64,000 bases of DNA from Planctomycetota bacterium (GTDB taxonomy: Bacteria; Planctomycetota; UBA8108; SXIK01), in contig OZ244999.1 of NCBI GenBank assembly GCA_965223265.1, forward strand, positions 5,824,001 through 5,888,000, given 5' to 3'. Shown here piece after piece: positions 3,977-32,081 of the stretch. The notes below the pieces were generated by a model. It saw nothing but the letters and a program-made list of their open reading frames with translations, ran no database searches and was not told the DNA's origin. Numbering within the stretch: position 1 is the stretch's first letter; each line of letters opens with the position of its first letter. The position numbers and the translations under genes are program-made.

Positions 3977-6900
3977 TCACGTTTCGCAGCCAGCCGAAGC
4001 TCTGCAAGTCAGGTTGTCCGCGGTCGGATCACTGCCGCATTTTCCGTGCGGCGGCGCGAGCACCTGGGCGCCGTCGAACAAATGACGCAGAATCGTCATG
4101 ACATCGCTGAGATCGACTTCGCCGTCGTCATCCGCGTCGGCGGCCTTCCAACACGGCGCCGCGCCGCGCCCTCGGAAGAGATGGTCAATCAAGCGAATGG
4201 CATCTGACAGGTTGATGTCGCCGCTTGCATTGACGTCGCCACGTTCGAAGCGCGTCAACACCTCTCCGGAAACGCGCAGGCGCTCGTACCTCTCCACCGA
4301 TATCGAGTCAAGGACTTCGAAGTTCTCGTCGAGATATCGAACTACGGCTTGAATCCCCAGCTCCGCTTCCGGAGCGACGATCTCGACCACACGCACGGGC
4401 GACGGAAGATCATGAATACGAAGCGAAGGCCGGAGCACAACCCAATATTCCACGCTACGATTATGGCGCTTGGCCGTGTAAATCAAATCCTCGTACGCTA
4501 CAACGTCCCTTTCGGCACCTCGCAGCGACAACTCCGCGGAGACCAAACTTGCCGGACCGCTCAACTCGCTCGGCGGAGCCGGTTCATGCCGTTCCCGCAG
4601 CTGTAAGATCGAACCGTCGGCAGCCTCGATGTCAACTTCCCACAGCGGCAACGTCTCGTAAGTGCATGAGGAATAAGTAACGTCTAAACTGTGTTGTCCA
4701 TGCAGCGACAGCGCACGCGTGAAGAACGCCTCGTCCATGATGCGCGAAACGGCTAAAGGCTCGTCTCCGCGTGCCTCAAACTCGAGGTCCTGAAGGGCAA
4801 GTTCGTACGTATCACCTCCGGGTAGAACGTATGTCTGCTCGTAGCGAAAACTGTAGGACGTCAGTTCGCCTCGATGCGTACGAACGACTCGAAATCTCCC
4901 GGGACTCAAAGGTTCAACAGACGTTCTGTCGGGGCCGATCGTCACTTCTTCGAACAGATCTGCGCTCCACGAATCACTTGTAGTCGGTAAAGGTATGGTT
5001 CCTGGAACAAACCTAATGCGACTCTTCAGCTCGTACGTCGTCCGTGGTGAGCGCGACGTGACGAAAACGCCGCATACGTTTGCTCCGCGTGGAATCTCCA
5101 AGGCGAACGTAGGAGTAGGAAGAGGCGGCGTTGAGCGCAAGAACGGTCGCACCTGCTTGAGAGCCAGCTCGCCGTTGGCCTCGATCTTGAACTCGATATC
5201 GAGAAGCACCTGTCGGCGCGGAACGTCGTCGGCGTCAATCGGAAAGTGGCGATCGACGTGCCAAAGGAGGCGACCAAGCTCCGCGAGTTGAACATCGGAG
5301 AGTACAAACTCCCCTGCGCCGATCAAATTCGAAGGCGAGGCACGAACGATCTCGACAAGCTCTCCTTCCTCGACTCGCAGTAAGTTCTTCTCGGCGAGGA
5401 CGCCAGGACTCGGGCTCACAACACTTTCCTCCCCCGCCTGGACGATCACCACGTAACGACTGTCCTCAGGGCGATTCGGATCTCCAGTGAATGCGACACC
5501 ATTTGCCCGCTCGTTCAGAAACGCCCGGTTCACTAAGACGCCCATGGTGGAGAGCTCTTGCGGAATACCGAAAAACGCTCTCTCCTCGTACGCTCGATAA
5601 TTCCAGTTGCTAGCCCAGACCTTCTTCAACGCCCGTTCGATCGTACGCTCGGAAGCTTGAGTGAAATCACAGTGCGATGGCCCCACGTCATCGGCGTCAA
5701 CGGTGTCAAGAACGCAAGCCGACGTAGAGTCATAGAGACCGGCGCCATTGAATTCCAACACGTCTTCGACATTCGAGGAGGAACGAAATCGCACCGGGAT
5801 GTTGTCAGCGCGGAAGACCTCTCGGATTCGTGCAGCGACGCGCGCGACAACATCAGGAGCGACGACGCCTTGGGCGCGCAGTGTGTCACGGAAGCGTCTT
5901 AGAACGTCAAACCGCAGCTCAGAGTCGCTCTGGAACTCAGCCCAATCCAGGAGCTCCTGCAGAAACTCCTCGTAGGTAACTTGCCGCTCGGAGTCCCGCG
6001 CCGACGGCATGCGATTCGCCCTCAAAAACTCGAGGTAATAGCTCATCGGAATAGCGAAACCCACTTCCTGATAACGCTGTAGGGGACCTGAAAGAACAGA
6101 CTGCAGCCGTGCGAGGTTGGCGGCCTTGCCGCCGTAGCGCGACACCGGCCGAGAGCCTGGCTCGAGCGCCATTTCTTCGAAGCGGTCAAGCGTCGAATAG
6201 TCCTCGTCGACCGTTGGCAGCTCTGAAAGCTGTGGCCGATTCGCAGCCCAGAACTCAGCTGCCTCACTGAGTGAGGCGGCATCGATGCTCCAGTCACCGG
6301 TCCCAACCTCAAGGCGAACCAGACGATCTTCGAACTCGGAAAACAGATCGTGTGCGTTCTCCACGAACACATTCGGAGTGCCGCGACGAGCACTGCGAAC
6401 GGCCAAGTGGCTTAGCTCTCCTTGAGGAGTTGCCGTGACCACTGCTGCGACGATTCCCTCTATGTCGCGTGGCGCGAAGTCCAGCACCACGATGTCCTGA
6501 AAACTGAGGCGACCACCGCCATTCAGCGCGGCGAATTCGCGCTCCGAGATCAGTCGCACGCGCCCATACGCAAGCCCTGTCGTGTATGGTACAAATCCCG
6601 CTACGCTAGGTGGCTCATCCAGGAACACCAAACTCTGGTCAGGCCAGCCAGAGGCATCTTCACGGGTCAGCGCAGCATCCGGGTAGTAAAGCAGCGGTCG
6701 CAGAGAGAAGACCTGTCTCAGTCTCGCCTCGACGCCGCGCACCTCATCGATCGTCGGAAGCTCCCGACGATCTGCATCGAAGTTCGTCAAGACGCTGAAG
6801 CCGTACAGTGGCCCGAAAGAGGTGCGAAGACGGTAGAGATTGCCACTGAAATACCGCCTCGTGGCTCGATTTCCCACCAGTTCGTCGTAAGCCTCAACAG

Positions 6901-13592: not shown

Positions 13593-15419
13593 TCAGCGGA
13601 TGCCTTCGGCTTCAAGACGCAGGATCTCGGCGCGCCAAACGTCACGGCGATCGTCGCTAGCCTCGTCTTCAGGCAACAGCGAACGCCGCGTGCAGTTGAC
13701 CAGCGCCTGCAGCGTCTGGTAGCGCCGCGTCTTCTCGATCGCTGGCGGAATGTGGTCGTGCACGATCGCCTCGACGTCCGCCATCTTGAGCAGCCCTCCC
13801 ACCGTCCGCGCCTTCAAGTTCGACCGTAGTGACGCGAACGCCGCCGCCGAGTATCCGGCCGTCAACTCGTCGAGTCGCTTCAAATCCGCCGCACTCGGTG
13901 CTGCGTCGAGCACACCTCTCGTGACCCATTTGAGAAACGCCTGTCGATCCTCTCCCTCGGGATCCAGCACCGGAATCACCAGGTCCCCGACGCGTCCCGG
14001 GCGTCGAATGTCCGGCGAGAGCAGATGGATCCTCGCCGTCATGAGCAGCCAAATGACACGACCGCGGAGGCGCGGGTCGGACATCATCTGCTGGACTTTG
14101 CCAGTCAACCGACGCTCCGTCGAGTGAGCCTCAGCGCCGACACCTCCGAACTGGGTGTCGGCCTCGTCGACGAAGATCACCACTTTGACAAGAGCTTCAA
14201 GAACTCGCCGCAAGCGTTCGAACACAACGTCCGTTTGCCCATACCACTGGCTGCGAATGTTCTTGAGCACGAGGACAGGCATGTCGAGCGCGCTGGCAAC
14301 GGCTTCGAAGATGAACGTCTTGCCACTGCCGATTGGCCCGGAGACGGCGGCGCCAGGCAGCGCATCTGCGCCGGTCGATTGAAACCTCGGGATCAACTCA
14401 TCGTTGAGAAAACCTTTGAGCTTTCTGAAGCCGATCACATCTTCCAAGGTGTGCTCAGGTTTTTTGAATTCAACGACGTCCTCGCCAAGCTGCGACTCGA
14501 TGAACTCACCGACTTTCTGGATCACCTCCGTAGGAGTCAGCGTTTCGTTGGCGTAGGCACTGCCGACCAAAAGCTGGCGCAGCGCGTGGATCGACAGCCC
14601 AGCGGTGTACATCGCCAGCACATCTTCGCTCGCCCACAGCTTCGGCGGCGGTGATTCGCCACGACTCGCGAACCAATTGACGAAATGGCGCCGCGTCTCG
14701 AGATCTGGCGGCGGCACGTCGACCGCGAGGACCTGCGGCAACGCCGCGACGCGTCGATGAATCATGCCGCGCGACTCGGCGACGAGAACGACGGAGTCGC
14801 TGCCTCGCATGAACGCCGGGTCGGAGAACCAGTCCTGCACAATGCCGACACGCCGCCGATCTGCTGCGGAGAGCCGTGAGACGTCTTCTCCGCTTTGCGG
14901 CAGGAGAAAATCCGCCGCCTCGACAACGATCATGAGATCGTCGGTTATGTAACTCTTTCCCTTCGGGCTCCTCGAGCGCGAACAGATCGTGAGTTGTCGC
15001 AAAAACTCGAGTGCTACGGTCGGCTGGCCGATGGCATCGCGCATGCGGCCTTCAAAGTCAGACTCGAACGCCTCCCGCTGCTGCGCCAGTCGTCGATCGG
15101 CAATCGCCTCGAACGCGGCAAGGTCGGGTTCGACGCCGAGCCGCCACGCAGTCCACGCACTCCGGAGACTCTCCCGCTGATCGGTGGGCACGACACGGAT
15201 CGGGCCATTCAGCTCGTAGACGAGCAGCGTCATACCGGGCACGCTGCATTTGTCGCAAAGAAACGGAATCAGCGGCTCGTAGCTGCCCTCCGCACGGTTC
15301 TGCCGCGTGAAGAAAAGGTCGTACACGTTTCCGGTCAAAAGAATACTGCGCGACTGACCGGCGTTGATGATCCGCGCGAGATGGCCGTAGAAGTCGTACG
15401 TCGGCTCGGAAGGGTTCAC
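13593..15419 (-). CDS. AAA+ ATPase, SpoVK/Ycf46/Vps4-like (degenerate N-terminal AAA module plus active C-terminal module)
   Basis: Walker A GPIGSGKT, pore loop SQWYGQT, Walker B IFVDEAD, arginine finger RRPGR; GTGA overlap with the ABC ATPase gene. Confidence 0.88.
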   Translation of the reverse strand: MNPSEPTYDFYGHLARIINAGQSRSILLTGNVYDLFFTRQNRAEGSYEPLIPFLCDKCSVPGMTLLVYELNGPIRVVPTDQRESLRSAWTAWRLGVEPDLAAFEAIADRRLAQQREAFESDFEGRMRDAIGQPTVALEFLRQLTICSRSRSPKGKSYITDDLMIVVEAADFLLPQSGEDVSRLSAADRRRVGIVQDWFSDPAFMRGSDSVVLVAESRGMIHRRVAALPQVLAVDVPPPDLETRRHFVNWFASRGESPPPKLWASEDVLAMYTAGLSIHALRQLLVGSAYANETLTPTEVIQKVGEFIESQLGEDVVEFKKPEHTLEDVIGFRKLKGFLNDELIPRFQSTGADALPGAAVSGPIGSGKTFIFEAVASALDMPVLVLKNIRSQWYGQTDVVFERLRRVLEALVKVVIFVDEADTQFGGVGAEAHSTERRLTGKVQQMMSDPRLRGRVIWLLMTARIHLLSPDIRRPGRVGDLVIPVLDPEGEDRQAFLKWVTRGVLDAAPSAADLKRLDELTAGYSAAAFASLRSNLKARTVGGLLKMADVEAIVHDHIPPAIEKTRRYQTLQALVNCTRRSLLPEDEASDDRRDVWRAEILRLEAEGIR

Positions 15420-16345
15420 TTCGCCAATACTCCATGGCCTTCACCGCGCTCCATCTGATCCCAGAAGCGCAAATTCTCTCGACGGCCCTGCCGCACCTCC
15501 GGGCTGAAGACGTTCGAGAGGATCTCGCCGCGCTGCTGGACAAACGTAGCGAAATCACGCTCTTGATCCGGGTGGTAGACGGGTGCCATAGCATCATAGA
15601 TGATCGTCGCCCCAGGATGGGAAGGCAACGGTTCCTCCTCCCATGCCCAATACTGCGATAGCCCGGCGACTCGGTCAGAAACGTAGATTGCCTCGTTGAG
15701 CTCGTGCGTCACGATGAGAATCGTGTACGGCGGCGTAAGCCCCGCCTTCTTCGCGGCAAGGTTCTCTTGGTAGAGCCCTAGCAGCATCCCTTGAAGCTCT
15801 TCGCGCGTTGCCTCGTCCAGCGCCCCAAAAGGCTCGTCGAGGAGTAGGATCTTCGGTTTCATGATCAGCGCCTGCGCGATCGCCACACGTTGACGCATCC
15901 CGCCAGACATCTCTGCGGGATACTTGTCGAGCGCTTCCCCCAACTTGAGCTCAACCAACTTCTCCGATGCCCGCTCCAGATGTTCTCGTCGCAGCCGACG
16001 CCACGCGCGGCAGCGAAAGAGGCGAAATGGAATGGTCGTTTCGTCCAGCATGAGTCCGAACGCGACGCTCTCGCGAGCCGTCAAGAAAGGAAAGAGTGAA
16101 TAGCGCTGATAGACGATGCCGCGATCTCTTCCAGGTCCTGAGATCGGTTCGCGGTTCATCAGGATCTCTCCCTGATGCGGCGGATGCGTCCCCAAGATCG
16201 CTCGCAGGAGCGTCGACTTGCCGCAACCGCTCGGACCGACGACCGCGACGATTTCGCCACGGATGACTTGCAGATCCACGTCGTAGAGGACCTTGTTACT
16301 TCCGAACCAGTGACTGACGCCTTTACACTCGAGGACGACATCCAT
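15416..16345 (-). CDS. ABC transporter ATP-binding protein (TauB/SsuB/NrtD-like)
   Basis: GPSGCGKST, Q-loop, MSGGMRQR, LLLDEPFGALD, VTH. Confidence 0.95.
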   Translation of the reverse strand: MDVVLECKGVSHWFGSNKVLYDVDLQVIRGEIVAVVGPSGCGKSTLLRAILGTHPPHQGEILMNREPISGPGRDRGIVYQRYSLFPFLTARESVAFGLMLDETTIPFRLFRCRAWRRLRREHLERASEKLVELKLGEALDKYPAEMSGGMRQRVAIAQALIMKPKILLLDEPFGALDEATREELQGMLLGLYQENLAAKKAGLTPPYTILIVTHELNEAIYVSDRVAGLSQYWAWEEEPLPSHPGATIIYDAMAPVYHPDQERDFATFVQQRGEILSNVFSPEVRQGRRENLRFWDQMERGEGHGVLAK

Positions 16346-16398
16346 AGCGATTCTATTCCGTTGGCGTTACTGAACCCCGAAGCCGACGCGATGCGAAG

Positions 16399-17208
16399 TT
16401 ACGACTGACCATACCAAGGGCACAACTTGGCTCGGAGATGTCGCAGACAAAAGTCCATGAGGAATCCCACTCCACCCAAGACGACCAGATAGACGTAGAC
16501 AACGCTCATGTCGAGAAGTCGATTCTGGAGTCGTAAGTGGTACCCGAAGCCGACTTCGGCGACGAGATACTCGGCGGCGATCAGATAGACCATCGCTGGT
16601 CCTACCTGCAGCCGAACGCCGTCGATCGCACGCGGTAGAATCTGGCGGACGATCACGTTCCAAATCAATTCACCTTGAGAGGCTCCCAGGGTCGACGCTT
16701 TATAGAGGAGCTCCTCCGGCACGTCTTCTTTCGCAGCGTGGTAGATCGATTGAGCCAGTGTCGGCACCATCCCGAAGGCGATCATGGCAACGTACATCTC
16801 GTACCCTGTACCCACCAGCACGAAAAACACGGGAAGCATCGCCGTCGGTGGTATCTTCGCGAGGAACGCGAGCGGCGGATGGAGGAACGCCTCGACGGGA
16901 GCGTAGCAGCCCATGAGGAGCCCGATGACGATCGAGAGGGCGACGCCCGCCGCGAGGCCGGAGAGGAGACGCGAAAACAGAGTCGCCTTGGTGTCCTCCC
17001 AGATCCAAACTTCGCCCGTGCGGTCCGCCGTGAACACCTTCATGACGCCGTCGGTCCAAAGCTGCGACAAGCTCGGAATGCTGCGGTCGTCAGGATTCTC
17101 TGCAAGCTGGCGATACGACAGAAGCGAGTAAATACCAATCAGAAGCGCGATCGATAGAATTCCAAGCGCGACGCGCCAGCGACGAGAGAGCGGCCTGCGA
17201 ATCATCAT
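16399..17208 (-). CDS. ABC transporter permease (TauC/SsuC-like)
   Basis: about 6 TM helices, EAA-like motif YKASTLGAS, LIAAEY..GFGY. Confidence 0.93.
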   Translation of the reverse strand: MMIRRPLSRRWRVALGILSIALLIGIYSLLSYRQLAENPDDRSIPSLSQLWTDGVMKVFTADRTGEVWIWEDTKATLFSRLLSGLAAGVALSIVIGLLMGCYAPVEAFLHPPLAFLAKIPPTAMLPVFFVLVGTGYEMYVAMIAFGMVPTLAQSIYHAAKEDVPEELLYKASTLGASQGELIWNVIVRQILPRAIDGVRLQVGPAMVYLIAAEYLVAEVGFGYHLRLQNRLLDMSVVYVYLVVLGGVGFLMDFCLRHLRAKLCPWYGQS

Positions 17209-18272
17209 TTGGCGTCCCGCACGGCCTGCACGAAGCTGGGATCGATTCGCAGCTGCGCTTCCGCAGCTTGAGCGGCGCTACCGTAACCAATCGACGGCGC
17301 ACTCTCGATGATTTCGTGCGACTGGCAAAAATCGGTCACGGTCTTCATGGTCGCCTTCAGCTCTTCACCTGTGAAGAGCGCCAGCGCTTCCTCAGGTGTC
17401 TTGTAAAAGGCCGTCTGCTTCACGACCGTTTTCATCTCCTCGAGTCCGAGGCTCGAAAACTTCGCCCCGAGCGCCACAAGCGTTTCGTCTGCGGTCGCGG
17501 GCGCCGCAAGCAGCTTGTTCACCTCGTAGAACGCATCGACGACGGCATGTGCGAACGCCTGACCGTTAGGTTTGTCGAGAGAGGCCTGGGCTATGCAGAC
17601 CATGTCGACAATTTCTCCGGGGATCGTCGAGGAATCAAAGAGGACCTTCGCGTCCGGGCGCATCTTCAGGCTCTGCAAAACAAATGGATTCCACACCATG
17701 ATGGCGTTGTATCCATCCTGTTTCGTCTGCATGGCCTGCGCGGCCGCTCCTGGATCCATGTTGGTGAACTGGTGATCGGCTTCCTTCTCGCCCGCCTTCT
17801 CGAGGTTGCGAACGAAACAGTACTCCGACACGCTCTTGGACAAGCCGTACACTTTGTGACTGCGGAGCTCCTTGACGTCGGAGATGCCCGTGACGACGCA
17901 CGCGTCTGCTCCCACGCTCGTGCTTGTCGGCAAAACCGCGACCGACTTGCGTCCCAGCGCCGGATTGAGGATGTCCATGTTGGTGATGCACACCGCGTCG
18001 CATGCAGAGGTGTTGTACATCGTGATGCACGTGTCGTAGTCAACCTCCTTGAGGACGATGTCGACGTTCCACTTCTTCTCAATCGGTCCGAGCTCACCCT
18101 CTTTCCCATCGACGAGCCCCTTCTCCTCGGCGACACCGAAAACACTCCACGATGGATACTCACTCCACGCCAAGACGAAGCTCGGGTTCGTCTTCTCGGC
18201 GTCCGTACAACCCACTCCACACAGGACGGCCAAAAGACACAAAGAAGCGATGTTCACAAATGCTCGATGCAT
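17205..18272 (-). CDS. ABC transporter substrate-binding lipoprotein (NMT1/SsuA-like)
   Basis: lipobox GVGC, WSEYPSW, STSVGADA, VWNPF, IPGEIVD; ATGA overlap with the permease. Confidence 0.88.
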   Translation of the reverse strand: MHRAFVNIASLCLLAVLCGVGCTDAEKTNPSFVLAWSEYPSWSVFGVAEEKGLVDGKEGELGPIEKKWNVDIVLKEVDYDTCITMYNTSACDAVCITNMDILNPALGRKSVAVLPTSTSVGADACVVTGISDVKELRSHKVYGLSKSVSEYCFVRNLEKAGEKEADHQFTNMDPGAAAQAMQTKQDGYNAIMVWNPFVLQSLKMRPDAKVLFDSSTIPGEIVDMVCIAQASLDKPNGQAFAHAVVDAFYEVNKLLAAPATADETLVALGAKFSSLGLEEMKTVVKQTAFYKTPEEALALFTGEELKATMKTVTDFCQSHEIIESAPSIGYGSAAQAAEAQLRIDPSFVQAVRDAK

Positions 18273-18341
18273 GGCTCCACCTCTCAAGATTTGCTCTCAC
18301 ATACTGACCTGAATAGTCTCACAACGCCTCGTGCGATCAAC

Positions 18342-19169
18342 TCACTCCTCGGGCAGCCGCGGCGACGCGCTCTCACGCGTCTCTTCGGCTGGCGCATCGC
18401 TCTCCGCCGCCAATCCGATCAGCTGATCGAACTCCTCGGTCGCCGAGTGCGTCCGGGCGTACTCCAAAAACTCAGCTTCCTGACGCTTGGTGTCGGTGCC
18501 TGCCATCTCGCGTGAGATTCTGGCTTTCGCCTTCGTCTGCTCACGCAGCTCACGCAGCTCCTGGAGCTCGCGCGAGGTGCGGTCTTCGCTGATGCCTGCA
18601 ATCATATTGCTGATTTTTTCTTCTTCCGTCGCGGTGATGACATCGGCCACCGTCGCCGCAGCTTCTTCCTTGAGCTGGTCGATCTCACGCATGAGCTGCT
18701 GCAGCTGGACCTTATGGCCACCGACGTTCTCACTCAAGACCTTGACGTCTTCTTCGAGCTCTGAGATATGTGCCGTCTTCTCCTCTATGGTCGTACTGAA
18801 ATCGTTGAAGGCGGCGAGACACTTGGCGTAGTCTTCGTTCTTCTTGATCTCGTCCATAGAGATCCCTTTGGCACGGAGCTCGCTAACGACGCTCCGGGCC
18901 TTCGCGGCTGCACCTTCCTTCAGGCTCTCCAGACGGTTGACGTCGTCGGTCAGCTTCTTGATCGTCGCGAGCTTTTTCTCCTCTTGGGCGATCATCGCGG
19001 CGACTGCGTCTTTGTACTGTTTGATGCGCGCAGACTTTTCGCGAATCACGTTATCAAACGTGGCCTGGATCACGTAGGGACTCTTGTTGAGCTCCTTGCG
19101 AGCGCTGTCGATCCTTCCGGTGATCAGGTACCAGAAGGCTCTCATGTAGCGACCAATGGCTCCAAACAC
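18342..19169 (-). CDS. PspA/IM30 (Vipp1/ESCRT-III superfamily) protein
   Basis: N-terminal amphipathic helix MFGAIGRYMRAFW, SP..I, long coiled-coil hairpin, AKA..E and terminal EFDQL helix typical of PspA. Confidence 0.78.
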   Translation of the reverse strand: MFGAIGRYMRAFWYLITGRIDSARKELNKSPYVIQATFDNVIREKSARIKQYKDAVAAMIAQEEKKLATIKKLTDDVNRLESLKEGAAAKARSVVSELRAKGISMDEIKKNEDYAKCLAAFNDFSTTIEEKTAHISELEEDVKVLSENVGGHKVQLQQLMREIDQLKEEAAATVADVITATEEEKISNMIAGISEDRTSRELQELRELREQTKAKARISREMAGTDTKRQEAEFLEYARTHSATEEFDQLIGLAAESDAPAEETRESASPRLPEE

Positions 19170-19287
19170 GTCATTCTCCCTTCTTCATAGCAGTTTGTTT
19201 TCGATTCAATCGAGCTATTCAGCGCAGTTCAGCACGTCGCCGTGCACGCGCGGACGCATCTCACCTCGAGAACGACCAGATCCGGCC

Positions 19288-20034
19288 TCACTCTCGGCGG
19301 GTCATGGCTTCGCCGACCTCCGTCTCCATGCTGCGGATTCGTTCTTCTACGCGTTTCGCGACCTCAAGACTCTCGTCCAGCTCACGTCGAATGCGAGCCA
19401 GATCCTCTGAACCGTCACGATTCACCGCCAACGCCTGCACGCCGTCGACGGTTCGTTCCAACTGCTCGATGCTCTTTTCGACTTCAACAATCAGCTTTTC
19501 CCGATTGCCAAGGATTGTATCGCGCGCCTTCGTCGTCCGCATGTTCTCAGCGCGGCGCCACAAATCGAGACTCCGCCGCAGGGAATCGAGGCACCCCTGA
19601 AATAGACGCTCAACTTTCGTGGCCATTTCAAACGCCACCTTAGATCCGAGACCATCGGCCCAGCCAGTGTCCTTCCGAAAGGCTCCGTACAGCTCGCGAA
19701 GCGCCCGCAAGCTTTCTTCCGTGCGCTCATCTTCATCTTGGCGGAGCTGCCGATCGAGCTCGTCGAGCGCCGCCTCGCGCTCAAACGCGGCTTCATCTTG
19801 GATTTCCTTCAACGCCCGCTTGGAGATGTCGTCGAGACTCAGAATCCAGCGCGTCGCAACAGCGCCAACGCCGCCGAGGAGGCCGCAAATTCCAACAAAT
19901 GCGGTCAAATCCATCGTGCTTCCGAATCCCCACGAGATGATCAACAGGCTCAGTCCAAGTACAACCGGGATGAGAGACCACGGCGACACGAAGAGGCTTT
20001 GAAGAACCTTTCTCCGAAACCTAGACGTATCCAT
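19288..20034 (-). CDS. 2-TM coiled-coil membrane protein (XpaC-like)
   Basis: two N-terminal TM helices followed by a charged helical bundle; lies between the PspA-like and OmpA-fusion genes. Confidence 0.7.
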   Translation of the reverse strand: MDTSRFRRKVLQSLFVSPWSLIPVVLGLSLLIISWGFGSTMDLTAFVGICGLLGGVGAVATRWILSLDDISKRALKEIQDEAAFEREAALDELDRQLRQDEDERTEESLRALRELYGAFRKDTGWADGLGSKVAFEMATKVERLFQGCLDSLRRSLDLWRRAENMRTTKARDTILGNREKLIVEVEKSIEQLERTVDGVQALAVNRDGSEDLARIRRELDESLEVAKRVEERIRSMETEVGEAMTRRE

Positions 20035-20049
20035 GCAGCGATCCCCGAA

Positions 20050-21828
20050 TCAGTACGGCGGTTGCCCCAGAACAAAAGTCACGGACTGGGCAGCGCCCCC
20101 TGTTTCTTTCGGCTCACTTGCGACGGCATAAACTCTTTCTTCCGGTATTCCCGCGGTGATCATGAAATCGGCTGCAGCTCGCGCGCGATCGAGCGCCAAC
20201 TTGCGATTGGCATCAGGATCGCCGACCTGACGAGTGTGTCCCTTCACCACAACGTAGTATCCGGGCCACGACTTGAGCTTCTTCACGAGATCACTCAGAA
20301 CATGTCGGCTCTGAGGCGTCAACGTGGCGCCGCCACGGCGAAAGACGAGTGGAGCCACGCGAACGACGCCGACATCGACGATCGCCTCGATCTGCGTTGA
20401 GTTCAAACGCGGCAGCGGCACCTCACCCTGAATCGTCTCGCCACGCCCAAGCCCACCCGGGTGGAAGCCGCTTTGATGTAACGCTCGAAGAATTCCGTCG
20501 TGTACGAACAACTCAGCATTGCCACCGGTTGGATCTCGATCGATCGCCTCGGTATTGACCAGCACCTCGGTGAGATTGGAGATGATTTCCCGCAGCGGCT
20601 GGACGCCTTTGGCTTGCGCCGCGGAGATGATTTCCATATGAGCGTAGTTCTCAATCGTATTCTTCCAGCGAATCGTATCGATCAGTCGCTCAGCCTGCTG
20701 CGAATCAAGTGGTTGGCCAAGGCGTCCCGCGTCTTCCGTCACCAGCTGAGCGACGTCTTCACGCGACTGCATAGAAGCAAACCGAGTGCGAAGATACGCT
20801 CTGACAAACCGTGTGACCAAGTCTGCATCGCTGGTGAGGATTCGGTCACCCACGACGAGAGCATCGACGATGAATCCCCTGAACTTCCCGCTATCGGTGA
20901 TGACATGCGTTCCAGGCGTTTCCAAGATCTTCGAGACGAATGGCTCCCACAGAACATACGCGTGCGGCTCGGTACGCGAGGCACGCCGAAACCGCTCGAA
21001 GACGTCCTTCGCCCCGTCCGCTTCGATCCATGCACTACGCGAGAGACTCGACAAATCGAAGTGTGCCATGAGAACGCGCGCCAGAGTCTCGCTGGGCGAA
21101 TTGCGCGTTGCGACGATGCGCACCGCCGCGTCGTTCAGAGCGTCAACATTAGCAATCGCCGATTCATACGCGACCATGGCATCAGCTCCGGTCGTCTCGT
21201 CGACAAGACAGACGATCTTCGCCGGCATGTCGCGCAGCTGAAAGCTCGTTTGGATCAAGCCATCGATCGGAAAGAGAGCCAGATGCACTTCACCGCTCTG
21301 CAGCTTGCGGATGCGTTGCAAGTAGTCAGCGCCGTCGTCTTCAATCTGAAGACGCAACCCTTCCAAAGCGAGTGCTTGACGGAATGCGTCGGATCGAAAT
21401 AGGAAGTAGCCGGAGAACGAGTCGAGGGCGAGCTTCACCGGCTTCAGCGCCGGAAGGTCGGCGATCGTTCTCTCGAGCCGTACCGTTTCGGACTCGATCT
21501 CCTCGGCGCTCGCAGATCCTGGAAGCGGCTTCACCATAACACCGCGAGATTGAAGATCTCGCAGCGCTTCAGAATAGCTCGTCCATTTTGCGAGTCGCCG
21601 TCCCTCGCGTTCGATCACCTGCTCGGCTTCCTCAACGCTCACACCCTCAGGCAACGCCGCGAGGACGAAACCCGACGTTTCGCTCTCACTCTGCAGGCGC
21701 TCGTACGCCCCTGCGAGCTTCCGACTCTCGTACTCCGAGAAGTGCTTGTAGATTGCGACGCCGGCGCTGAGAAGCAAAAGCCAAACCAGGCTGACTGCGA
21801 TGACCCTTCCTGCTTTTGACTGACTCAC
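20050..21828 (-). CDS. membrane-anchored NMT1/SsuA-like solute-binding domain fused to an OmpA-like C-terminal domain
   Basis: N-terminal TM, LALDSFSGY, DETTGADA, LWEPFV, then VKGHT..GDPDANRKLALDRARA..GIPEERV. Confidence 0.85.
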   Translation of the reverse strand: MSQSKAGRVIAVSLVWLLLLSAGVAIYKHFSEYESRKLAGAYERLQSESETSGFVLAALPEGVSVEEAEQVIEREGRRLAKWTSYSEALRDLQSRGVMVKPLPGSASAEEIESETVRLERTIADLPALKPVKLALDSFSGYFLFRSDAFRQALALEGLRLQIEDDGADYLQRIRKLQSGEVHLALFPIDGLIQTSFQLRDMPAKIVCLVDETTGADAMVAYESAIANVDALNDAAVRIVATRNSPSETLARVLMAHFDLSSLSRSAWIEADGAKDVFERFRRASRTEPHAYVLWEPFVSKILETPGTHVITDSGKFRGFIVDALVVGDRILTSDADLVTRFVRAYLRTRFASMQSREDVAQLVTEDAGRLGQPLDSQQAERLIDTIRWKNTIENYAHMEIISAAQAKGVQPLREIISNLTEVLVNTEAIDRDPTGGNAELFVHDGILRALHQSGFHPGGLGRGETIQGEVPLPRLNSTQIEAIVDVGVVRVAPLVFRRGGATLTPQSRHVLSDLVKKLKSWPGYYVVVKGHTRQVGDPDANRKLALDRARAAADFMITAGIPEERVYAVASEPKETGGAAQSVTFVLGQPPY

Positions 21829-22862
21829 TACCGACCTCGATACCTCTGTCTTCTTCGCTTGCGACGCACTTTTCTTTGAGCAGCAAAGGCAAACCCCACC
21901 ACCAAAAGCACAATGACGACGACGCGCCCGAATCCGTCCGAGTCACCACTGTTTCCTCCGGCAGGCGCCCCCACTGGGTTAGAGCCTGGAACGTGTGGCG
22001 AAGGAAGGTTGGTTGGACGCGACGTCGGTCCGGAGGTGGATTCGCGAGCTCTGCTGGATGTTGCAGCGCCAGATCCGATCGGTTGATCCGATGTCGCCAG
22101 AGCTCCGAGCGCCGCGATCAGATCACCGGCGGCGGAATCTGGAATCGCGGCAACCACGGCAAAAGCCTCTTCGTCGACCGTGCCATCCCCAACGCTTCCC
22201 ACCTCAGCGAAAACCTCGCTGAGCGCCTTTTTCAAGGCGGACGAATCGTCAGCACGTCGATAGCCATGCACTCGCGTCGCCAGCGAGTGGTCTGTCTTCA
22301 TGTCGACACCAACCACATCGATCGTTAGACCACGCGCCAGGATCTCGGGCAAGAAAGCTTCAACGAGTTGAGGATCCGAAGCCTTGCCATCCGTTACGAT
22401 GAGCAACCGAAACGTGCCGTAACCTCGCTGTTCCTTGCGGCGCGCGAGCAGCATGTCGCTGCCCTTCTTCAGGTAAGCGCCAAGCGGCGTCCCTGCGTTG
22501 GGTTCGATGGGAGCCAAAGCCTGGCGCAGCACGTCGAGGTCGACAGGGCCCAGAGGGTAGACGAGATCGTTCGTGACGCCGTGCCCGCTGAAGACGAGAA
22601 CACCGACGTGCGTCGTCGGCGGCACTTGGCCGAGGACCGCGAGCAGCGATTCTTTCGCGATGCTCATCTTCGAACGCCCGCTGCCGTGCATCGGCTCCTT
22701 CATCGATCCCGATGCATCGAGAACGACGACGATGTTATCGCTAATACTCGTCGCGGCAGGTGGCTCTTGCGCCGCCAACCATGACGAAGCAGGACCTGCC
22801 AGAAGAGCGATCGAGAACGCGTTCAAAAAAAGCGTCCAAAAACATTCCTTCCTCATGGTCAT
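21828..22862 (-). CDS. exported von Willebrand factor A domain protein with C-terminal membrane anchor
   Basis: signal peptide, MIDAS DASGSM, GTPL, LIVTDG, Pro/Ser linker, C-terminal TM plus basic tail. Confidence 0.88.
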   Translation of the reverse strand: MTMRKECFWTLFLNAFSIALLAGPASSWLAAQEPPAATSISDNIVVVLDASGSMKEPMHGSGRSKMSIAKESLLAVLGQVPPTTHVGVLVFSGHGVTNDLVYPLGPVDLDVLRQALAPIEPNAGTPLGAYLKKGSDMLLARRKEQRGYGTFRLLIVTDGKASDPQLVEAFLPEILARGLTIDVVGVDMKTDHSLATRVHGYRRADDSSALKKALSEVFAEVGSVGDGTVDEEAFAVVAAIPDSAAGDLIAALGALATSDQPIGSGAATSSRARESTSGPTSRPTNLPSPHVPGSNPVGAPAGGNSGDSDGFGRVVVIVLLVVGFAFAAQRKVRRKRRRQRYRGR

Positions 22863-22901
22863 CTCCCTTCAGTCACAGAGTGCGTGAGCGGTGCCATTGG
22901 C

Positions 22902-24698
22902 TTAGAAATCGAATTCGCTCTGAGACACGGACTCTGCCTTGACACGGAGGAGTCGGAACTCGACGCGCATATTCTCCTTTGACTCGCCGAGATCGCGTGG
23001 CCGTGCGATGACCGGCTCAATGATGCCGGCACCAATCGCTTGGAGCTGCTTCTCGTTCAGCCGAAACTGCTTCGACTCAGCGTATCTCACGATCGTTCGC
23101 CGCACTTCCTCAGCACGCCGCTGGGACAGATTCAACGCCGCCTGCATGGTTCGGCTTGGATCGTTTTCGCCGCCGTTGAACGCCCCCGATTGGACGAGCT
23201 CGACGATTCTCGAGGTCTCGTTGAGGTCAAGTGGCCTGCCCTCAACGAAGTAGCGGTAGTTGCCTCGCGTGCCAGTCCTCTTGATGATGCCCTTCTTGAG
23301 TCCAGCCATGACCAAGTCGCGGAGCGTACGCGTGGGATCAGCGTGACCTCGAATGGCGAAAACCGCGTTGCCGTAGAGTGAAGCATTCTCGACGACGCGC
23401 TGGAATTCAGCTTCGTACTGGCGAACGGGAAACTTCGTCTGGTTGGGCTCGAAGCTGATCGTGAAGGAGAGGAGCGTGCCCTCAGTCTCGACGCCTTCGC
23501 CGATTTCAGGCCCGCCTTCTGCCAGTTGCGTTTTTGTCAGCCCGCCCAGCCGAGTCAGTTGGGGGAACTCGAGATCGTGCATGAGGAGATCGATACGATT
23601 CTTCGCATAGCCTTGTGCAACTGCCAATTGCAAGGCTTCCCGCTGCTTCGTTTCGAAGCCGCTCAAGAATCCTGCCTCTTCGAAGAACAGCCGGTTGCCA
23701 CTCAAGAAGACGAACTCGCAATCCGAGATCAACCCGTCCGCCTCGGCGGCATTTGGGATGACGTCCGAACCGTAGATCTTTTGGGTCAACTCGAGAACGG
23801 CCGAATACTCACGCGACGACCCACTACTCTGGTATCCCCTTTTCATTTCTGCGACGTCTTCACACCCTTTCAGGTAGCCCGCAGCGAACTTCTCGACGAG
23901 GCCGCGTTGGGAGTCGTAGAAGTCCTTACGACAGGCGTAGACGTCCGCGATCGATCGGTTCATGTTGAGCGTCGACACCGCGACGTGGGCTCCCTTGACG
24001 GTGCCCTCGGCTCCGGTTCCGGCGGCGTCGAGACCGCCGGTGAGCCCAATCATGTCCGGCGAGATCACCATGCAGGCGTCGACACTGGAATCGGCGCGAA
24101 AACGAGACGCTGGCCCGCCGTCACCCGTTAATTCCTTCACCCAGACGACGTCGATATCGCTCCACCCGAGACGAGCACTCTTCAAGATATCGTCGAGCAT
24201 GCCGACGTGCGGGCCGCCTTGCTGGAGCACGACTTTCTTTCCCTTGAGGTCGTCCAGAGTTTCAATCTCAGCGCGCCCCACCATGTGGTCCCCCTGCGAC
24301 CACGTGAGCTGCAAAAAGACCACCGGGCGCGTGCGCGGATCCGAGCCCACGACTTCCGACGCCATGCCGATCATTCGCAGGGTGCCGCGAAGAAACGGCG
24401 TATCCCCCGCCATGTAGCGCTTGACCTGACCGACGAAGTCATCACCTGCGACGAGCTTCAGGTTCAGCCCGAGCTCCTGAAAGATCGAGCCGCGCTTCGT
24501 TGCAAGCCCGCCATTAGCATAGAACGTGGCAACGTCGCCGCCCCACGTGATGTAGGGCACCTCCAGCACTCCCTGCGCCTTCACGTTGCCCACGGGCGCA
24601 CGCCCGACGAGCTGCGCGAAAGACTCCTGCGCGCTCACGGACGTCCCGAAGCTCAACAGCGCCGCGAGCGCTCCGAACAGAAACGTTCTCGACTTCAT
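22902..24698 (-). CDS. exported solute-binding protein fused to an OmpA-like domain
   Basis: RBS AAGGGGGA before ATG 24698, signal peptide VSA-Q, ITWGGD, WSQGDH, SIADVY, then FEPNQ..IRGHAD...LSQRRAE..NMRVEF. Confidence 0.85.
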   Translation of the reverse strand: MKSRTFLFGALAALLSFGTSVSAQESFAQLVGRAPVGNVKAQGVLEVPYITWGGDVATFYANGGLATKRGSIFQELGLNLKLVAGDDFVGQVKRYMAGDTPFLRGTLRMIGMASEVVGSDPRTRPVVFLQLTWSQGDHMVGRAEIETLDDLKGKKVVLQQGGPHVGMLDDILKSARLGWSDIDVVWVKELTGDGGPASRFRADSSVDACMVISPDMIGLTGGLDAAGTGAEGTVKGAHVAVSTLNMNRSIADVYACRKDFYDSQRGLVEKFAAGYLKGCEDVAEMKRGYQSSGSSREYSAVLELTQKIYGSDVIPNAAEADGLISDCEFVFLSGNRLFFEEAGFLSGFETKQREALQLAVAQGYAKNRIDLLMHDLEFPQLTRLGGLTKTQLAEGGPEIGEGVETEGTLLSFTISFEPNQTKFPVRQYEAEFQRVVENASLYGNAVFAIRGHADPTRTLRDLVMAGLKKGIIKRTGTRGNYRYFVEGRPLDLNETSRIVELVQSGAFNGGENDPSRTMQAALNLSQRRAEEVRRTIVRYAESKQFRLNEKQLQAIGAGIIEPVIARPRDLGESKENMRVEFRLLRVKAESVSQSEFDF

Positions 24699-25307
24699 AA
24701 GTTCCCCCTTTCGAATTTTAGCCGCCGTGAGCGCCACACTGCAGAGCCGCCCGCTGCAGGCCGACGATCCAGACGGAGGGCGGCGGTGAGGCGTGACGCG
24801 GTGTCGAAACCGAAGCCTCGTTCGCTGCAAGGTCCCATGCCACGTCGACGGCGCGAGAGTAGCGGCGTTATTATCTCCTTTCGTAGCGCTCAATGTCAAA
24901 ACTTGCACGCAAGAGACGCGAAGGAGCCCTACACCACAGATGCCTCGGAGATCGCGATGGAGACTTGGGCACAAGGCGGCCAGGAAGCGGTCGACTCGAC
25001 CCGACAAGGAGCTTCGTCAATCCCCTCGCGCGCTACTCCCGATATCCGAGCGAACGCGTTCCGCCTCGAGCGGTTTCGCTCATTCGACTCCCTGCCGCGA
25101 GTCGGGCGGATCGATCCGGTTCTCGATGGGTTCTTTGACCGCGACCCATTGCAAGGTCAGAGTCGTCGCCGCTCCGAGAGCCGCGCCTACAGTGCGCCAA
25201 TGTCCCCTAATGAGACGTCGCGATGGCAGCAGCGTTTCAAAAAATCGGCCGAAGTCTCCATGATTCGCGAAAGAGGCGACTGAGCGAATCGGCAACGACC
25301 GGACGCT

Positions 25308-25708: not shown

Positions 25709-28700
25709 CTACTTTTGCAGGCCCGGCGCGGGACCCCACTGCTCCACCTCGGTCAGCTTTCCGGCCACGCCACCCCCACCAGCAGCAATCGCCAATCCAC
25801 CGATGAGAGGTCCATCCAACACTTGGAACTGGCCAGCCTTGTAGATCTCCATTCCAACCGCCACCGGGACGCCTCTGATCAGACCACCATACGTCACCAC
25901 GGCGAAAGCTGCGTGACTTCCTTTCTCGATGGGCCACTCGCAGTCGGCGGGCTTGTTCTGAAACGTGGCGCTCCCTTCAACGAAGCCAAACCCGGCGAAA
26001 GCTCCGAGCGTCAGATCCCCTTTACCGCGCACGAAGTATTGACACCCGGTCGTATCCGTCGCGTAAGCCGCTATTCTCATCTTTCCGAGCCCAGCGATGA
26101 GCGGCGAGCCCCAAAAACTCGCCCACACGAACCCCGACCACCGACACCCCTTCTTGGAGCAAGGAGGCATGCCTTCCGCGGGCGGCGCCTGTCGCCTGCG
26201 TTTCAAGCACTCGATGAACTTGTTCCACTCGTACGGGCTGCCATCCTCCGGAAGTGGGCAACCATATGGTCCGAGGGAAGTGTCATCGTGCGGATCGCGA
26301 GATCCCGGCCAATCGTCGTCATCTGTTGTTTCATCCATTCGGTACGGGTGGCGACCGTCGCTTGACCCACCGATGAGAAGCGGATCGCGCTGCACGAACA
26401 CTCCCAGATCCGCATCGTGAACTCTGAGTCCAAAGTCATGAAGTCCGTGCTGGCTGATATATCTCCGGCCTGCGAACAAGAAATCGTCCTCGAGTATTTC
26501 ATGCTGGGACGTCCAATCAGCGCTCAGCCGCGTCGGGTGTCCGTTCCCGTCGTAAAGATACCGGCCGCTCACCGCCCCATCCGAACTCAAACGCGTCACG
26601 ACGTTGGAGAACGCGTCGGTAACGTAAAACTCGAACGACGACGAGAGCCGTGACGAAGATCGCAGGACGATATCGTTTTGATCTCCTCCCCACACGTACC
26701 ACCGAGCGACGTCGTCGTCTGCGTACCACTCCTCGAGCAGGTTGCCTTCCGTCGAATAGTAGTAATCACTCTCGACCCACTGCGATTCTCCCGCTGAAAT
26801 CCTTTGATGCAGTCCGTTGTACCGATACGCGGAGAGTACAGACGACCCGGATCTCGCAGCGACCAATCGGTTCCACGCGTCGTAAACAAATTCGACACCG
26901 TCGTCGCGCCCTACCATGTTGCCAGCTCGGTCGTAGCTGTAGCGGGTAGCATCGACCTGTGTGAGCTCGTCCGACGCGTTGACCGAGCTCAACGACGGAG
27001 TACCGCAGAAGCTCTCGTCACCGCGGTAGTACTCAAGCCAATTCCCCACCGAATCCAGCGTCCAGCACTCGTGAGAATCAATCGCCGTCGACTGCCGAGG
27101 ATTCTCGCCGCGCTGGTGCTCAACGAGCCGGCCTGCATCGTCGTATGAAAACTCTTCATCGAATAGATACCGTCCATCGATACGGCCGACGTCGTCCCGC
27201 CGAACCACCACCTGGGATCGATCGTTGTACTCATATACGAAACGATTGATGTCACGGCGACCGTCCGTCACGAGAAGATCGTCGATTCTCCCAAATCGAT
27301 CAAGCCCCGCGTATCCATCGCTGTTTTCTTCGTCGTCACCGACCAGGGTGCGTACGATCCCGAGATCGCCGTATTCTCTTTCGACGACCCGGCTCAGCCC
27401 GAGGTACACATCACGGAACAGCCATTCGTCTCGCATCTTGGCGCCGCTGGGTCGACTGAACGCCGTGTCGACTCCCGGTTCGTAGACGTCCAGAACAACG
27501 ACACCGCTAGGGTAGGTCGTCGACACACGCTTGAGGCTGTCCGTCGCGCTCTTCGGGAAGTGATAGTCGTACGTCACCTTGTTGGAGACCCCCGGATCGA
27601 CCGCTCCGCGCCACTCTTGGTGTACAGTCTCGACGACGCCAAACGCTCCGTAACCGTAGACGACTTCGTCCTCTACATACCCCTGTTCACCATAGCTGCG
27701 AACGCGTACCGCACGATCAAGAGCGTCGTAGGAGCGCCCGATCTTTCGTATCCTCCCGTCGACTTCGGGGTCGCCAAGGTCAGTGACATGGTCAACGACG
27801 AGGCGTCCGCGCTGGTCGTACTCATACACGTGCTTCGTGTCGCGCTGGTCCTCCATGTACGTCTGCTCGCCCTGAGCGTTGTACGCGAAGTGAACTTGGT
27901 CGTCGGGGCCACCTGCAGCGCCGGTGATCGGATCCGGAAATCTGATGGTTCGGATCAAGTCGTTCGACGCGAGGCGTGAGGCGGAATCTCCAGATCCGTG
28001 CGTCACGCCGTAGACGAACGCCGTGACGCGGTCGTGGGCCGCAACTTCGCCGGCTGCCGCTTTCACCGTTTTCGTGCTCAGCCGCCCCGCGGCGTCATAG
28101 CCGTAGACGATCGTGCGGTCGTCGACACTCCCCGGTATACCGTCAGCGAAGTTCCCGATCTGCAGAGCCACGGCCCCCCAACCGGTGTACTCAGTCCGCT
28201 GAGTCACGAGGTCGCCGCTCTGCGCGCTGACTGCCGGTCCACGCCGCTCCTCGATCTCGCCGAGGAGTGTGTAGGTGTACTCTCTCACACGATTGAGAGG
28301 GCCTGAGACAGCAGGAGGCTCGCCTTGAGGTCGTGCGTCGAGATCGATTCCACCGTTTGTTCCGTAGCGGACGACCCGCGACAACCGTCCGAGCTCGTCG
28401 CGCCAGATCGCCGTGTATTGACCACGACCCGTTCCTTGCACCCCGACGGTCAGGCTGCCCGTGGCTTCTTCCTCAGCGTCATGGCGGCGTGAGTAAGCGC
28501 GGATCAATTCTGCCCCGCCTCCAGGGCCAGGTAGATACACGGTCTGTGCAACGACAGTGTCGCCTACAAGATCGTGTGCCGCTTCGTACGCGGACTCATC
28601 CGCATCGTAGGAGGCTGCACGGGCGATTATTCGACCGGCTCCATCGTAGCGCGTCTTCTCGAATCGCGCCCCTTGGCTTCGCGTCTTGACGATGAACCCG

Positions 28701-31636: not shown

Positions 31637-32081
31637 TTCAGCCCCTTTCACTTCGAACGTCCCGTCGACCTCTCGACGAGCATGAAAAGACACCACGCGC
31701 GCCTGCGCCAGGCGCGCACCGATTGCTGACACCGACAGGCAACGCAGCAACACAACCCGGCGTGCGCGGGTGTGAACCTTGCCTCGCGTTCCCTGCAGGC
31801 ACTGCGCTCATACGACCCGAGCCCCCCACTCGGCGTGAGGCCGCCAGAGCCTACGGCACCGTGAAGACCTCCGGCGTGCCCGCGGCGACCCCGACCACGC
31901 AGAAAAGATTCGCAACTGCTCCTTACTGTCACTGCCCGGACGCTCGCTTCGATGTCCGAAGCCTGTCGAGCGTCGTTTCCCAATCCTACGAAGCAAGTCC
32001 CAGCCTACCCAGCTCGTCTGCCCGTCGCACACTCTGACCGTCGCGTCTCGCGCGCGGGGCGCGACGCCGGCTTGGCGACGC

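Follow-up and report, generated by a model that had tools for sequence, protein, structure and literature searches.

We describe a nine-gene locus in a 64,000-nucleotide stretch of a Planctomycetota genome (the window, part of a single 9.18-Mb contig; OZ244999.1, positions 5,824,001 to 5,888,000) that is built around a pair of genes encoding a divergent PspA/IM30 protein and a tandem AAA ATPase. Between 13593 and 24698 the window holds nine intact, co-oriented open reading frames (ORFs) on the minus strand, here named g1-g9, and comparison with related loci in other genomes shows that the PspA-like gene g5 and the ATPase gene g9 form the conserved core, with the ABC transporter and periplasmic genes behaving as one optional block. 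Domain calls from Pfam and NCBIfam models, with PADLOC 2.0 for defence systems, reproduce the domain contents that an earlier note, made from the letters of the window, had listed for the nine genes. The observation in that note is confirmed and its first interpretation is partly supported. The features of the locus are as follows.

22902-24698, minus strand: g1, 598 amino acids (aa), secreted NMT1/SsuA-type binding domain followed by a divergent, putatively OmpA/MotB-like C-terminal domain (Pfam and PADLOC models)
21828-22862, minus strand: g2, 344 aa, exported VWA protein (VWA E 9.7e-11) with a low-complexity linker, one C-terminal transmembrane (TM) segment and a basic cytoplasmic tail
20050-21828, minus strand: g3, 592 aa, anchored by an N-terminal TM segment, then a helical linker, a binding-protein domain and an OmpA domain for peptidoglycan binding
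19288-20034, minus strand: g4, 248 aa, two hydrophobic segments (10-28, 43-61), then a helical C-terminal part of ~180 aa
18342-19169, minus strand: g5, 275 aa, predicted divergent PspA/IM30 protein of the ESCRT-III superfamily (hhalign)
17205-18287, minus strand: g6, 360 aa, lipoprotein-like substrate-binding protein (TIGR03427, SsuA_fam)
16399-17208, minus strand: g7, 269 aa, NitT/TauT-like importer permease (BPD_transp_1 E 2.3e-14; TauC E 8e-25, under cut-off)
15416-16345, minus strand: g8, 309 aa, ABC ATPase (ABC_tran E 2.4e-32; ntrCD E 4.9e-50, under cut-off)
13593-15419, minus strand: g9, 608 aa, tandem AAA ATPase (AAA E 4.8e-14) with a degenerate first domain (D1, ~5-300) and a classical-clade second domain (D2, ~310-580)
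24870-24899, minus strand: sigma-70-like promoter match (TTGACA, 18 nt, GATAAT), 11/12 positions, ~170 bp 5′ of g1

The overlapping start and stop codons that the earlier note had reported are found at three junctions, with 1 nt shared by g2 and g3 and 4 nt each at g6/g7 and g8/g9, and the remaining intergenic gaps in the block measure 15-118 bp. No enzyme genes lie inside the nine-gene block, in agreement with the earlier note, which had seen no catabolic enzyme for an imported solute. Upstream of g1 is ~1 kb without a convincing gene, and on the downstream flank 24 bp separate the g9 stop from the end of a convergent ORF. The sigma-70-like site is a consensus match only, one of 4 such sites in the region compared with 2.8 ± 1.7 in shuffled sequence.

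Profile comparison places g5 in a divergent subfamily of the PspA/IM30 superfamily rather than among canonical PspA proteins. Alignment with hhalign of 30 g5 relatives to 15 canonical PspA proteins, which come from other genomes of the phylum, each score above the Pfam cut-off and were aligned beforehand, gives a probability of 92.9 % (E 3.8e-7) over 225 columns, and the match pairs g5 residues 1-262 with PspA residues 3-226, from the N-terminal helix to the C-terminal region. We file g5 as a divergent member of the superfamily because its Pfam score falls short but the profile-profile match runs the full length; the PF04012 cut-off is a detection threshold and no biological feature. Half of the relatives (15/30) match PF04012 at E ≤ 1, the best at 1.1e-5 and none shown above the cut-off, and some database copies of the family carry the source name PspA/IM30. 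A phmmer search of the PDB with the single g5 sequence reaches Vipp1 only at E 2.2. The AlphaFold2 (AF2) model of g5 has a mean predicted local distance difference test (pLDDT) score of 79 and places helices at residues 3-16, 31-100 and 112-241, a long hairpin after a short N-terminal helix, with extra residues inserted at the tip of the hairpin (101-114). A Foldseek search with this model ranks Vipp1 (6zvr) first, at an E value of only 4.9e-3. Two motifs in the C-terminal tail, at 246-254 and 272-274, are invariant in 30 sequences, and g5 proteins from different phyla share 51-72 % identity. By its family membership g5 may self-assemble and bind membranes. The genome of the window contains no canonical PspA above the Pfam cut-off, and such proteins occur in 25 of 101 sampled genomes of the phylum.

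The g9 protein is a tandem AAA ATPase whose architecture resembles that of type II AAA proteins. Foldseek and VIA-align recognize two consecutive AAA folds in its AF2 model (pLDDT 88.9; predicted template modelling score 0.78), bearing out the double-module description in the earlier note. Foldseek aligns the whole chain (~640 columns) with p97/VCP, Cdc48 and Rix7, with p97 best at E 3.9e-19, and VIA-align matches residues 5-579 to Drg1/Afg2 (Z 22.0, 465 aligned) and Rix7 (Z 21.2). The stretch from residue 5 to 300 lies over D1 of Drg1, Rix7 and p97, so that the AAA fold begins at about residue 5, and the best phmmer match in the PDB is VAT (1.1e-24). Taken alone, the C-terminal half (312-579) aligns with Vps4 (3eih; Z 21.6, root mean square deviation (rmsd) 3.4, 262 aligned), and FIGL1 (21.6), spastin (20.8), Rpt subunits (20.1-20.8) and FtsH (19.9) tie with Vps4 to within about 1-2 Z. 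The Pfam AAA match covers residues 359-478, and PF00004, AAA_22 and nSTAND_NTPase5 are the only families listed; the same scan finds no Vps4_C and no DNA-binding or protease domain, and g9 reaches 50.2 of the 650 bits that the CdvC model requires. The label 'Vps4-type' in the earlier note does not suit the architecture of g9, which has neither MIT nor Vps4_C and aligns along its whole chain with p97, Rix7 and Drg1.

Across 29 aligned g9 sequences the two AAA domains differ sharply in motif integrity. All 29 lack GK[ST] at the D1 P-loop position. By contrast, the D2 Walker A (361-368), the aromatic-hydrophobic-Gly pore loop (391-394), Walker B (415-421) and both arginines of the second region of homology (473 and 476) are invariant, a motif set that would equip D2 as a substrate-threading AAA unfoldase. 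The protein ends in a conserved C-terminal helix region. Two stand-alone g9 paralogues (L102:1573-3276 (-) and L103:5330-7132 (-)) share 32-33 % identity with g9 and keep the layout of dead D1 and active D2; they adjoin an HslU/ClpX-like ATPase and an M50 protease, or GH57 and FMN reductase genes, and have no PspA-like neighbour. Both carry Ala or Ser at sensor-1 and lack a helical insertion present in g9 D1 (~90-112, 147-156), which makes this insertion a candidate PspA-specific surface on the comparison of these two paralogue sequences. A further g9 orthologue (G005:C57:10237-12048) contains one in-frame TAG and could be a pseudogene, a sequencing error or a case of recoding.

The two core genes are tightly linked across genomes. 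A pattern scan with one genome per species yielded 127 g5 relatives, from which 80 loci were kept, and we mapped the nine window proteins onto these loci by tblastn. By record title 64 loci are from Planctomycetota, 9 from Verrucomicrobiota, 5 from Hydrogenedentota and 2 from Nitrospiraceae, where the titles are labels of metagenome-assembled genomes assigned by hand. In 43 of the 57 loci with at least 6 kb of downstream sequence, g9 follows g5 on the same strand, directly adjacent in 27 and separated from it by an intervening ABC module in 16. Among 101 genomes drawn evenly from the phylum, 5 contain the g5 family and 6 the g9 family, and in all five g5 genomes (5/5) g9 lies on the same contig, 23-2938 bp away. 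The system is rare and very tightly linked. The closest relatives of the window are contigs labelled Planctomycetota, and others labelled Hydrogenedentota, Nitrospiraceae and Verrucomicrobiota likewise contain the g5/g9 dyad.

The genes around the dyad come and go as a unit. Sequence of at least 6 kb on both sides of g5 is available for 42 loci, and 11 of these, from two phyla, carry all nine genes in the same order, an arrangement far from chance. Of the 42 loci, 13 have the periplasmic genes g1-g3 together with the ABC genes, 2 have g1-g3 without the ABC genes, none has the ABC genes without g1-g3, and 27 lack both groups. Where the ABC genes stand between g5 and g9 they keep their order, in 16 loci labelled Planctomycetota, Verrucomicrobiota or Hydrogenedentota. 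The conserved core is thus the PspA-like/AAA dyad, and the ABC and periplasmic genes, which the earlier note had taken as integral parts of one machine, are one optional add-on to it. Loci L011 and L075 carry g1-g8 in order, and g9 is not seen within the ~7 kb that follow.

Directly upstream of g5 lies g4, which is likely to encode a membrane receptor or anchor for g5. A gene of the g4 family stands directly 5′ of the g5 relative in 34 of the 69 loci whose upstream sequence extends for 1.5 kb or more. The protein has no Pfam family, and searches recover 1003 cluster representatives at E ≤ 0.001, of which the 150 listed span 196-384 aa and mostly measure ~250 aa. The idea that g4 might itself be a paralogue of g5 or PspA was rejected on hhalign probabilities of only 0.7 %, 0.15 % and 0.3 %. 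A 55-sequence g4 profile finds no ESCRT-III chain in the PDB at E ≤ 10, Snf7 is absent from the first 25 of 75 Pfam families listed for 27 g4 relatives, and the Snf7 hidden Markov model (HMM) matches nothing in the genome at E ≤ 10, an insensitive test in that its cut-off is passed in 0 of 14 control genomes. The HMM of Rv2743c (PspM) likewise has no match to g4 in the genome. The nearest named neighbour of g4 in the ESM Atlas is a cluster partly annotated as Rv2743c (score 0.88), a lead only, with the family assigned to 12 % of its members.

In dyad-only loci other genes occupy the place of g4, and these upstream partners of the PspA-like gene are recurrent and lineage-specific. Six such loci (L026, L027, L034, L038, L039 and L043) have a giant protein of 552-1869 aa encoded directly upstream, with the genes of L039 and L043 running near the contig end; the two that were scanned, from L034 and L038, contain DUF3686 (E 1e-177 and 1e-186), DUF7902 and an AAA domain. 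The upstream neighbour in L024, L029, L030, L032 and L033 is a ~320-aa protein that has one or two hydrophobic segments and, in the two of five scanned, matches no Pfam family. Proteins of 162-229 aa, most with an N-terminal or near-N-terminal hydrophobic segment and with no Pfam family in the one scanned, take this position in L028, L031, L035, L041 and L042. Finally, L045, L048 and L050 have a neighbour of ~415 aa, with SBP_bac_11 in that of L048, the one scanned.

The periplasmic genes of the add-on combine binding domains with features for attachment to the envelope. The g1 ORF extends to 25007, and the start is most likely the ATG at 24698, which is preceded by a Shine-Dalgarno-like GGGGGA stretch and opens a signal-peptide-like sequence. 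Its NMT1-type binding domain is matched at E 1.4e-5. The C-terminus scores 19.1 bits against PF00691 (E 0.0018), under the cut-off of 27.2, and residues 510-592 match the ZorB/MotB model (E 8.6e-5), so that its OmpA-like nature is weakly supported by the sequence. In g2 a DxSxS metal-site motif lies at residue 49 and the TM segment at 310-328 precedes the basic tail. The OmpA domain of g3 is matched at E 1.1e-12 (5.9e-14 for the C-terminus alone), its binding stretches match TIGR03427 (E 8.9e-7) and SsuA (E 1.3e-4), and its TM segment spans residues 9-27. Orthologues of g1 share 52-59 % identity and, counted jointly with g2 and g3, are present in 18 of the 53 loci with at least 6 kb of upstream sequence.

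The genes g6-g8 encode all parts of a NitT/TauT-type importer, namely a BPD_transp_1 permease, an ABC_tran ATPase and an SsuA/NMT1-type binding protein. For g6 the ATG at 18272 is the probable start, and the hydrophobic leader of the protein terminates in Cys. It matches TIGR03427 at E 3.2e-51 with 174.5 bits, under the cut-off of 333.9, and SsuA_fam at E 2.3e-10. The imported substrate cannot be named because g6, g7 and g8 all score under every equivalog cut-off, and domain scans of the window show no catabolic or regulatory gene for a solute beside the importer. Pairwise BLASTP among the g1-g9 proteins gives zero cross-matches at E ≤ 0.01; the binding domains of g1, g3 and g6 are related at the level of family models only.

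We analysed possible contact between the two core proteins by co-folding g9 with g5 residues 200-275. This pair reaches 0.46 compared with 0.02 for the best control, which the tool grades as weak support. Of 80 solved complexes 58 reach the co-folding mark, as do 2 of 110 mismatched pairs; at 0.60 or under, it is reached by only 7 of these complexes and by the two mismatches. Contact agreement between runs is at least 24 %, with a pLDDT of at least 43 for the partner. For the contact between PspA C-terminus and ATPase that the earlier note had put forward for modelling, the in-silico support is thus weak.

From the observed homology, domain content, motif integrity, linkage and modularity we infer a cycle of polymerisation and ATP-driven disassembly with a membrane anchor and a solute-coupled add-on, a reading that we hold to be slightly more probable than improbable. 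The g5 protein would polymerise on the cytoplasmic face of the inner membrane, where the two-TM, helical g4 protein would serve as its membrane receptor or anchor. The ATPase g9 would engage g5, probably through the invariant C-terminal tail, and its D2 pore loops, driven by ATP hydrolysis, would extract g5 subunits and thereby turn the polymer over. In this cycle g9 would do the job that Vps4 does on ESCRT-III, using a differently built motor of the Cdc48/Rix7 kind. In the nine-gene form the OmpA domains of g1 and g3 may tether binding domains to peptidoglycan, and the add-on, consisting of the g6-g8 importer and g1-g3, may couple periplasmic solute uptake or sensing to the membrane-maintenance core. 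The ligand-sensing, trans-envelope machine of the earlier note is an inference that the data do not support as stated.

A bolder form of the polymer-and-motor cycle is possible and, in our estimate, somewhat more likely wrong than right. Here the locus would encode a true bacterial ESCRT-III/Vps4-style cycle, with a PspA-clade polymer, a two-TM recruiter and a dedicated tandem AAA motor that reads the g5 tail through a subfamily-specific insertion in its dead D1 and unfolds or recycles the polymer; in the nine-gene form, periplasmic detection by the peptidoglycan-tethered binding proteins and the ABC transporter would gate the cycle. If true, the textbook view that ESCRT-III relatives in bacteria have no ATPase partner would have to be given up, and either convergent invention or deep ancestry of the polymer-plus-AAA principle would be indicated.

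Several observations weigh against a polymer-and-motor cycle. The g5 sequence itself matches PF04012 at only E 0.4 and 10.7 bits (cut-off 33.9), and neither PspA nor Vipp1 is among the PDB matches at E ≤ 1 of the 30-relative g5 profile, the best of which is prefoldin at 0.02. VIA-align superposes the g5 model on E. coli PspA (4whe) with Z 11.6 (rmsd 3.2, 124 aligned), a score that ties with unrelated coiled coils, as hairpins including dynein stalks and PI3K iSH2 reach Z 11.4-12.9. The predicted fold of g5 is a generic long helical hairpin, and structure cannot decide whether it is a PspA fold; the PspA-like assignment of 18342-19169 in the earlier note accordingly stands on profile-profile comparison and not on structure search, which cannot prove the fold. 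In g9 the sensor-1 Asn is replaced by Ala 462, invariant in the 29 PspA-associated ATPases, and an Ala at this position could mean slow or regulated hydrolysis. No MIT family is found in g9 at E ≤ 0.01. The predicted binding of the g5 tail to g9 is weak, and co-folding gave no interface. In 14 of 57 loci g9 is not seen in the 10-kb flank, and two of these carry g1-g8. Finally, the published 'Snf7' label for g4 is not reproduced by profile, PDB or HMM comparisons.

An alternative that we consider unlikely reverses the direction of control along the lines of PspA and PspF. The g5 protein would then be a membrane-stress-sensitive regulator or adaptor that inhibits or positions g9, and g9 would act on other substrates, for example damaged membrane proteins, in the manner of Cdc48, Msp1 or FtsH. 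Precedent exists in that PspA binds and inhibits the AAA+ protein PspF, as set out in one part of a 2025 review (PMC7619361). The build of g9 matches that of multi-substrate Cdc48/Rix7-type unfoldases and its invariant sensor-1 Ala fits an enzyme in need of activation; moreover, stand-alone paralogues occur without a PspA-like neighbour, and the wider family therefore would have other clients. However, the minimal conserved unit is g5 and g9 alone, adjacent in 27 of 57 loci, with no third conserved gene for a client or protease and with an upstream neighbour that varies by lineage. Nor does g9 contain a DNA-binding or protease domain, and both the invariant tail of g5 and the weak co-folding signal are as compatible with a substrate or recruitment motif as with an adaptor.

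It is rather more doubtful that the modules are uncoupled, such that a peptidoglycan-tethered nutrient importer (g1-g3, g6-g8) happened to land within a PspA-like/AAA stress pair of independent function and shares its transcript for convenience. The domains of g6-g8 are those of an ordinary type-I importer, the core lacks the add-on in 27 of 42 loci and the add-on is gained or lost as a block, and in locus L012 g9 stands directly behind g5 despite the presence of g1-g4. Against mere convenience, the ABC genes lie between g5 and g9 with their order kept in 16 loci of three phylum labels, g8 and g9 share 4 nt where one stops and the other starts, the importer comes without an accompanying catabolic or regulatory gene for a solute, and the same association has been reported independently in section 18 of Ravi et al. 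2024 (PMC11237479). Very improbable, in our view, is a role as a component of an anti-phage or anti-toxin defence island that senses envelope damage, an idea raised in the earlier note. The patchy distribution (g5 family in 5/101 genomes, yet 51-72 % g5 identity between phyla) and the RHS-repeat protein gene directly upstream would fit it, but PADLOC 2.0 returns nothing specific: its matches are generic, to P-loop, OmpA and coiled-coil domains, with mad3 on g8 as the best. At the domain level they comprise ZorB/MotB on g1, LmuB on g5 (3.9e-5), mad3, mad8 and AriA on g8 and IetA on g9 (8.3e-6). The window holds no nuclease, abortive-infection effector or tRNA gene, and a scan of viral contigs with the g5 profile gave 272 pattern matches, none of which encodes a g5 relative.

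The locus is a further member of a kind of operon already predicted in silico. The earlier note had cautioned that related neighbourhoods might have been noted bioinformatically, and this is correct: section 18 of Ravi et al. 2024 in mSystems (PMC11237479; first posted 2020) predicts by comparative genomics an operon type that contains PspA, a protein whose two AAA+ domains include an inactive N-terminal copy, an ABC ATPase, a permease, a PBPB-OmpA protein that binds solute and peptidoglycan, and a TM 'Snf7' protein, and proposes ATP-dependent membrane remodelling tied to solute transport. All components named in that section are present here, almost gene for gene. The account given there does not include the VWA protein, the second protein joining a binding domain to OmpA or the separate lipoprotein-type binding protein of the present locus, and the Snf7 nature that it gives the TM protein is not confirmed for g4. 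To this the present analysis adds counts that identify the PspA-like/AAA dyad as the core and the transporter and periplasmic genes as one optional block. Also new are an Ala that is invariant at sensor-1, a D1 insertion that stand-alone paralogues lack, upstream partners specific to lineages, and modularity expressed in counts.

The dyad can be compared with several known systems. As in the ESCRT-III/Vps4 (CdvB/CdvC) systems, a polymer gene of the superfamily lies near an AAA gene of the classical clade, the g9 pore loop is intact, and g5 has a conserved C-terminal tail in the region where ESCRT-III proteins hold their Vps4-recruiting motifs, according to part of the 2025 review (PMC7619361). 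By contrast, g9 has no MIT and no Vps4_C, carries an extra, dead D1 in front and has Ala for Asn at sensor-1, and within the superfamily g5 belongs with PspA rather than with Snf7. The haloarchaeal 'Halo_adaptin' loci, as Makarova et al. 2024 (PMC10936438) describe them, also have a PspA-like gene directly 5′ of a Vps4-like ATPase without MIT; that ATPase has a VAT/Cdc48-type N-domain where g9 has a degenerate AAA domain, and its partners are winged-helix and adaptin-like proteins rather than envelope proteins. With type II AAA proteins (p97/Cdc48/VAT, Rix7/NVL and Drg1/Afg2) g9 shares the tandem D1-D2 layout, but it has no N-terminal substrate or cofactor domain, its D1 P-loop is lost, identity is only 14-20 %, and its subfamily has a D1 helical insertion and a conserved C-terminal region of its own. 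E. coli PspA and PspF offer a likeness in that PspA is functionally tied to an AAA+ protein, although PspF, unlike g9, activates transcription as an NtrC-type protein and carries a DNA-binding domain. M. tuberculosis PspA likewise has a small integral membrane partner encoded adjacent to it, PspM (Rv2743c), whose HMM does not match g4.

The significance of the locus lies in how PspA-type polymers are turned over. One passage of the 2025 review states that a Vps4-like ATPase appears absent from bacteria (PMC7619361), and how PspA/Vipp1 polymers are taken apart is unknown according to passages of the two reviews (PMC7619361, PMC10936438). In this locus family a compact and strongly conserved pair of genes is a candidate for the missing bacterial polymer-disassembly activity, and the nine-gene form is a natural extended version of it wired to the cell envelope. 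Open-access literature and bioRxiv yielded no experimental study of a tandem AAA ATPase associated with PspA, and no paper linking Ycf46 with Vipp1. A 2026 preprint on huge phages reports that 15 of 189 phage pspA genes have ABC transporters as neighbours, and the term 'AAA+' is absent from its text.

The genes that flank the block look unrelated to g1-g9 and encode an RHS-repeat protein, a phosphoenolpyruvate carboxylase, a DUF4349 protein and a CBM9/DUF5916 protein. No tRNA genes and no break in composition were found in the 64-kb window. The RHS-repeat gene (25709-31753, minus strand; RHS_repeat E 6.9e-17) encodes 2014 aa and lies directly upstream of the operon, ~1 kb away. A PAC2-family protein, from a family named after proteasome-assembly chaperones, is encoded at 1348-2250 on the minus strand (E 1e-37). 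At 3977-9382 on the minus strand lies a gene for an 1801-aa protein of unusual make-up, which joins 12 FG-GAP-like repeats and a dockerin to PPDK_N (E 5.5e-17), the AMP/ATP-binding domain of pyruvate phosphate dikinase.

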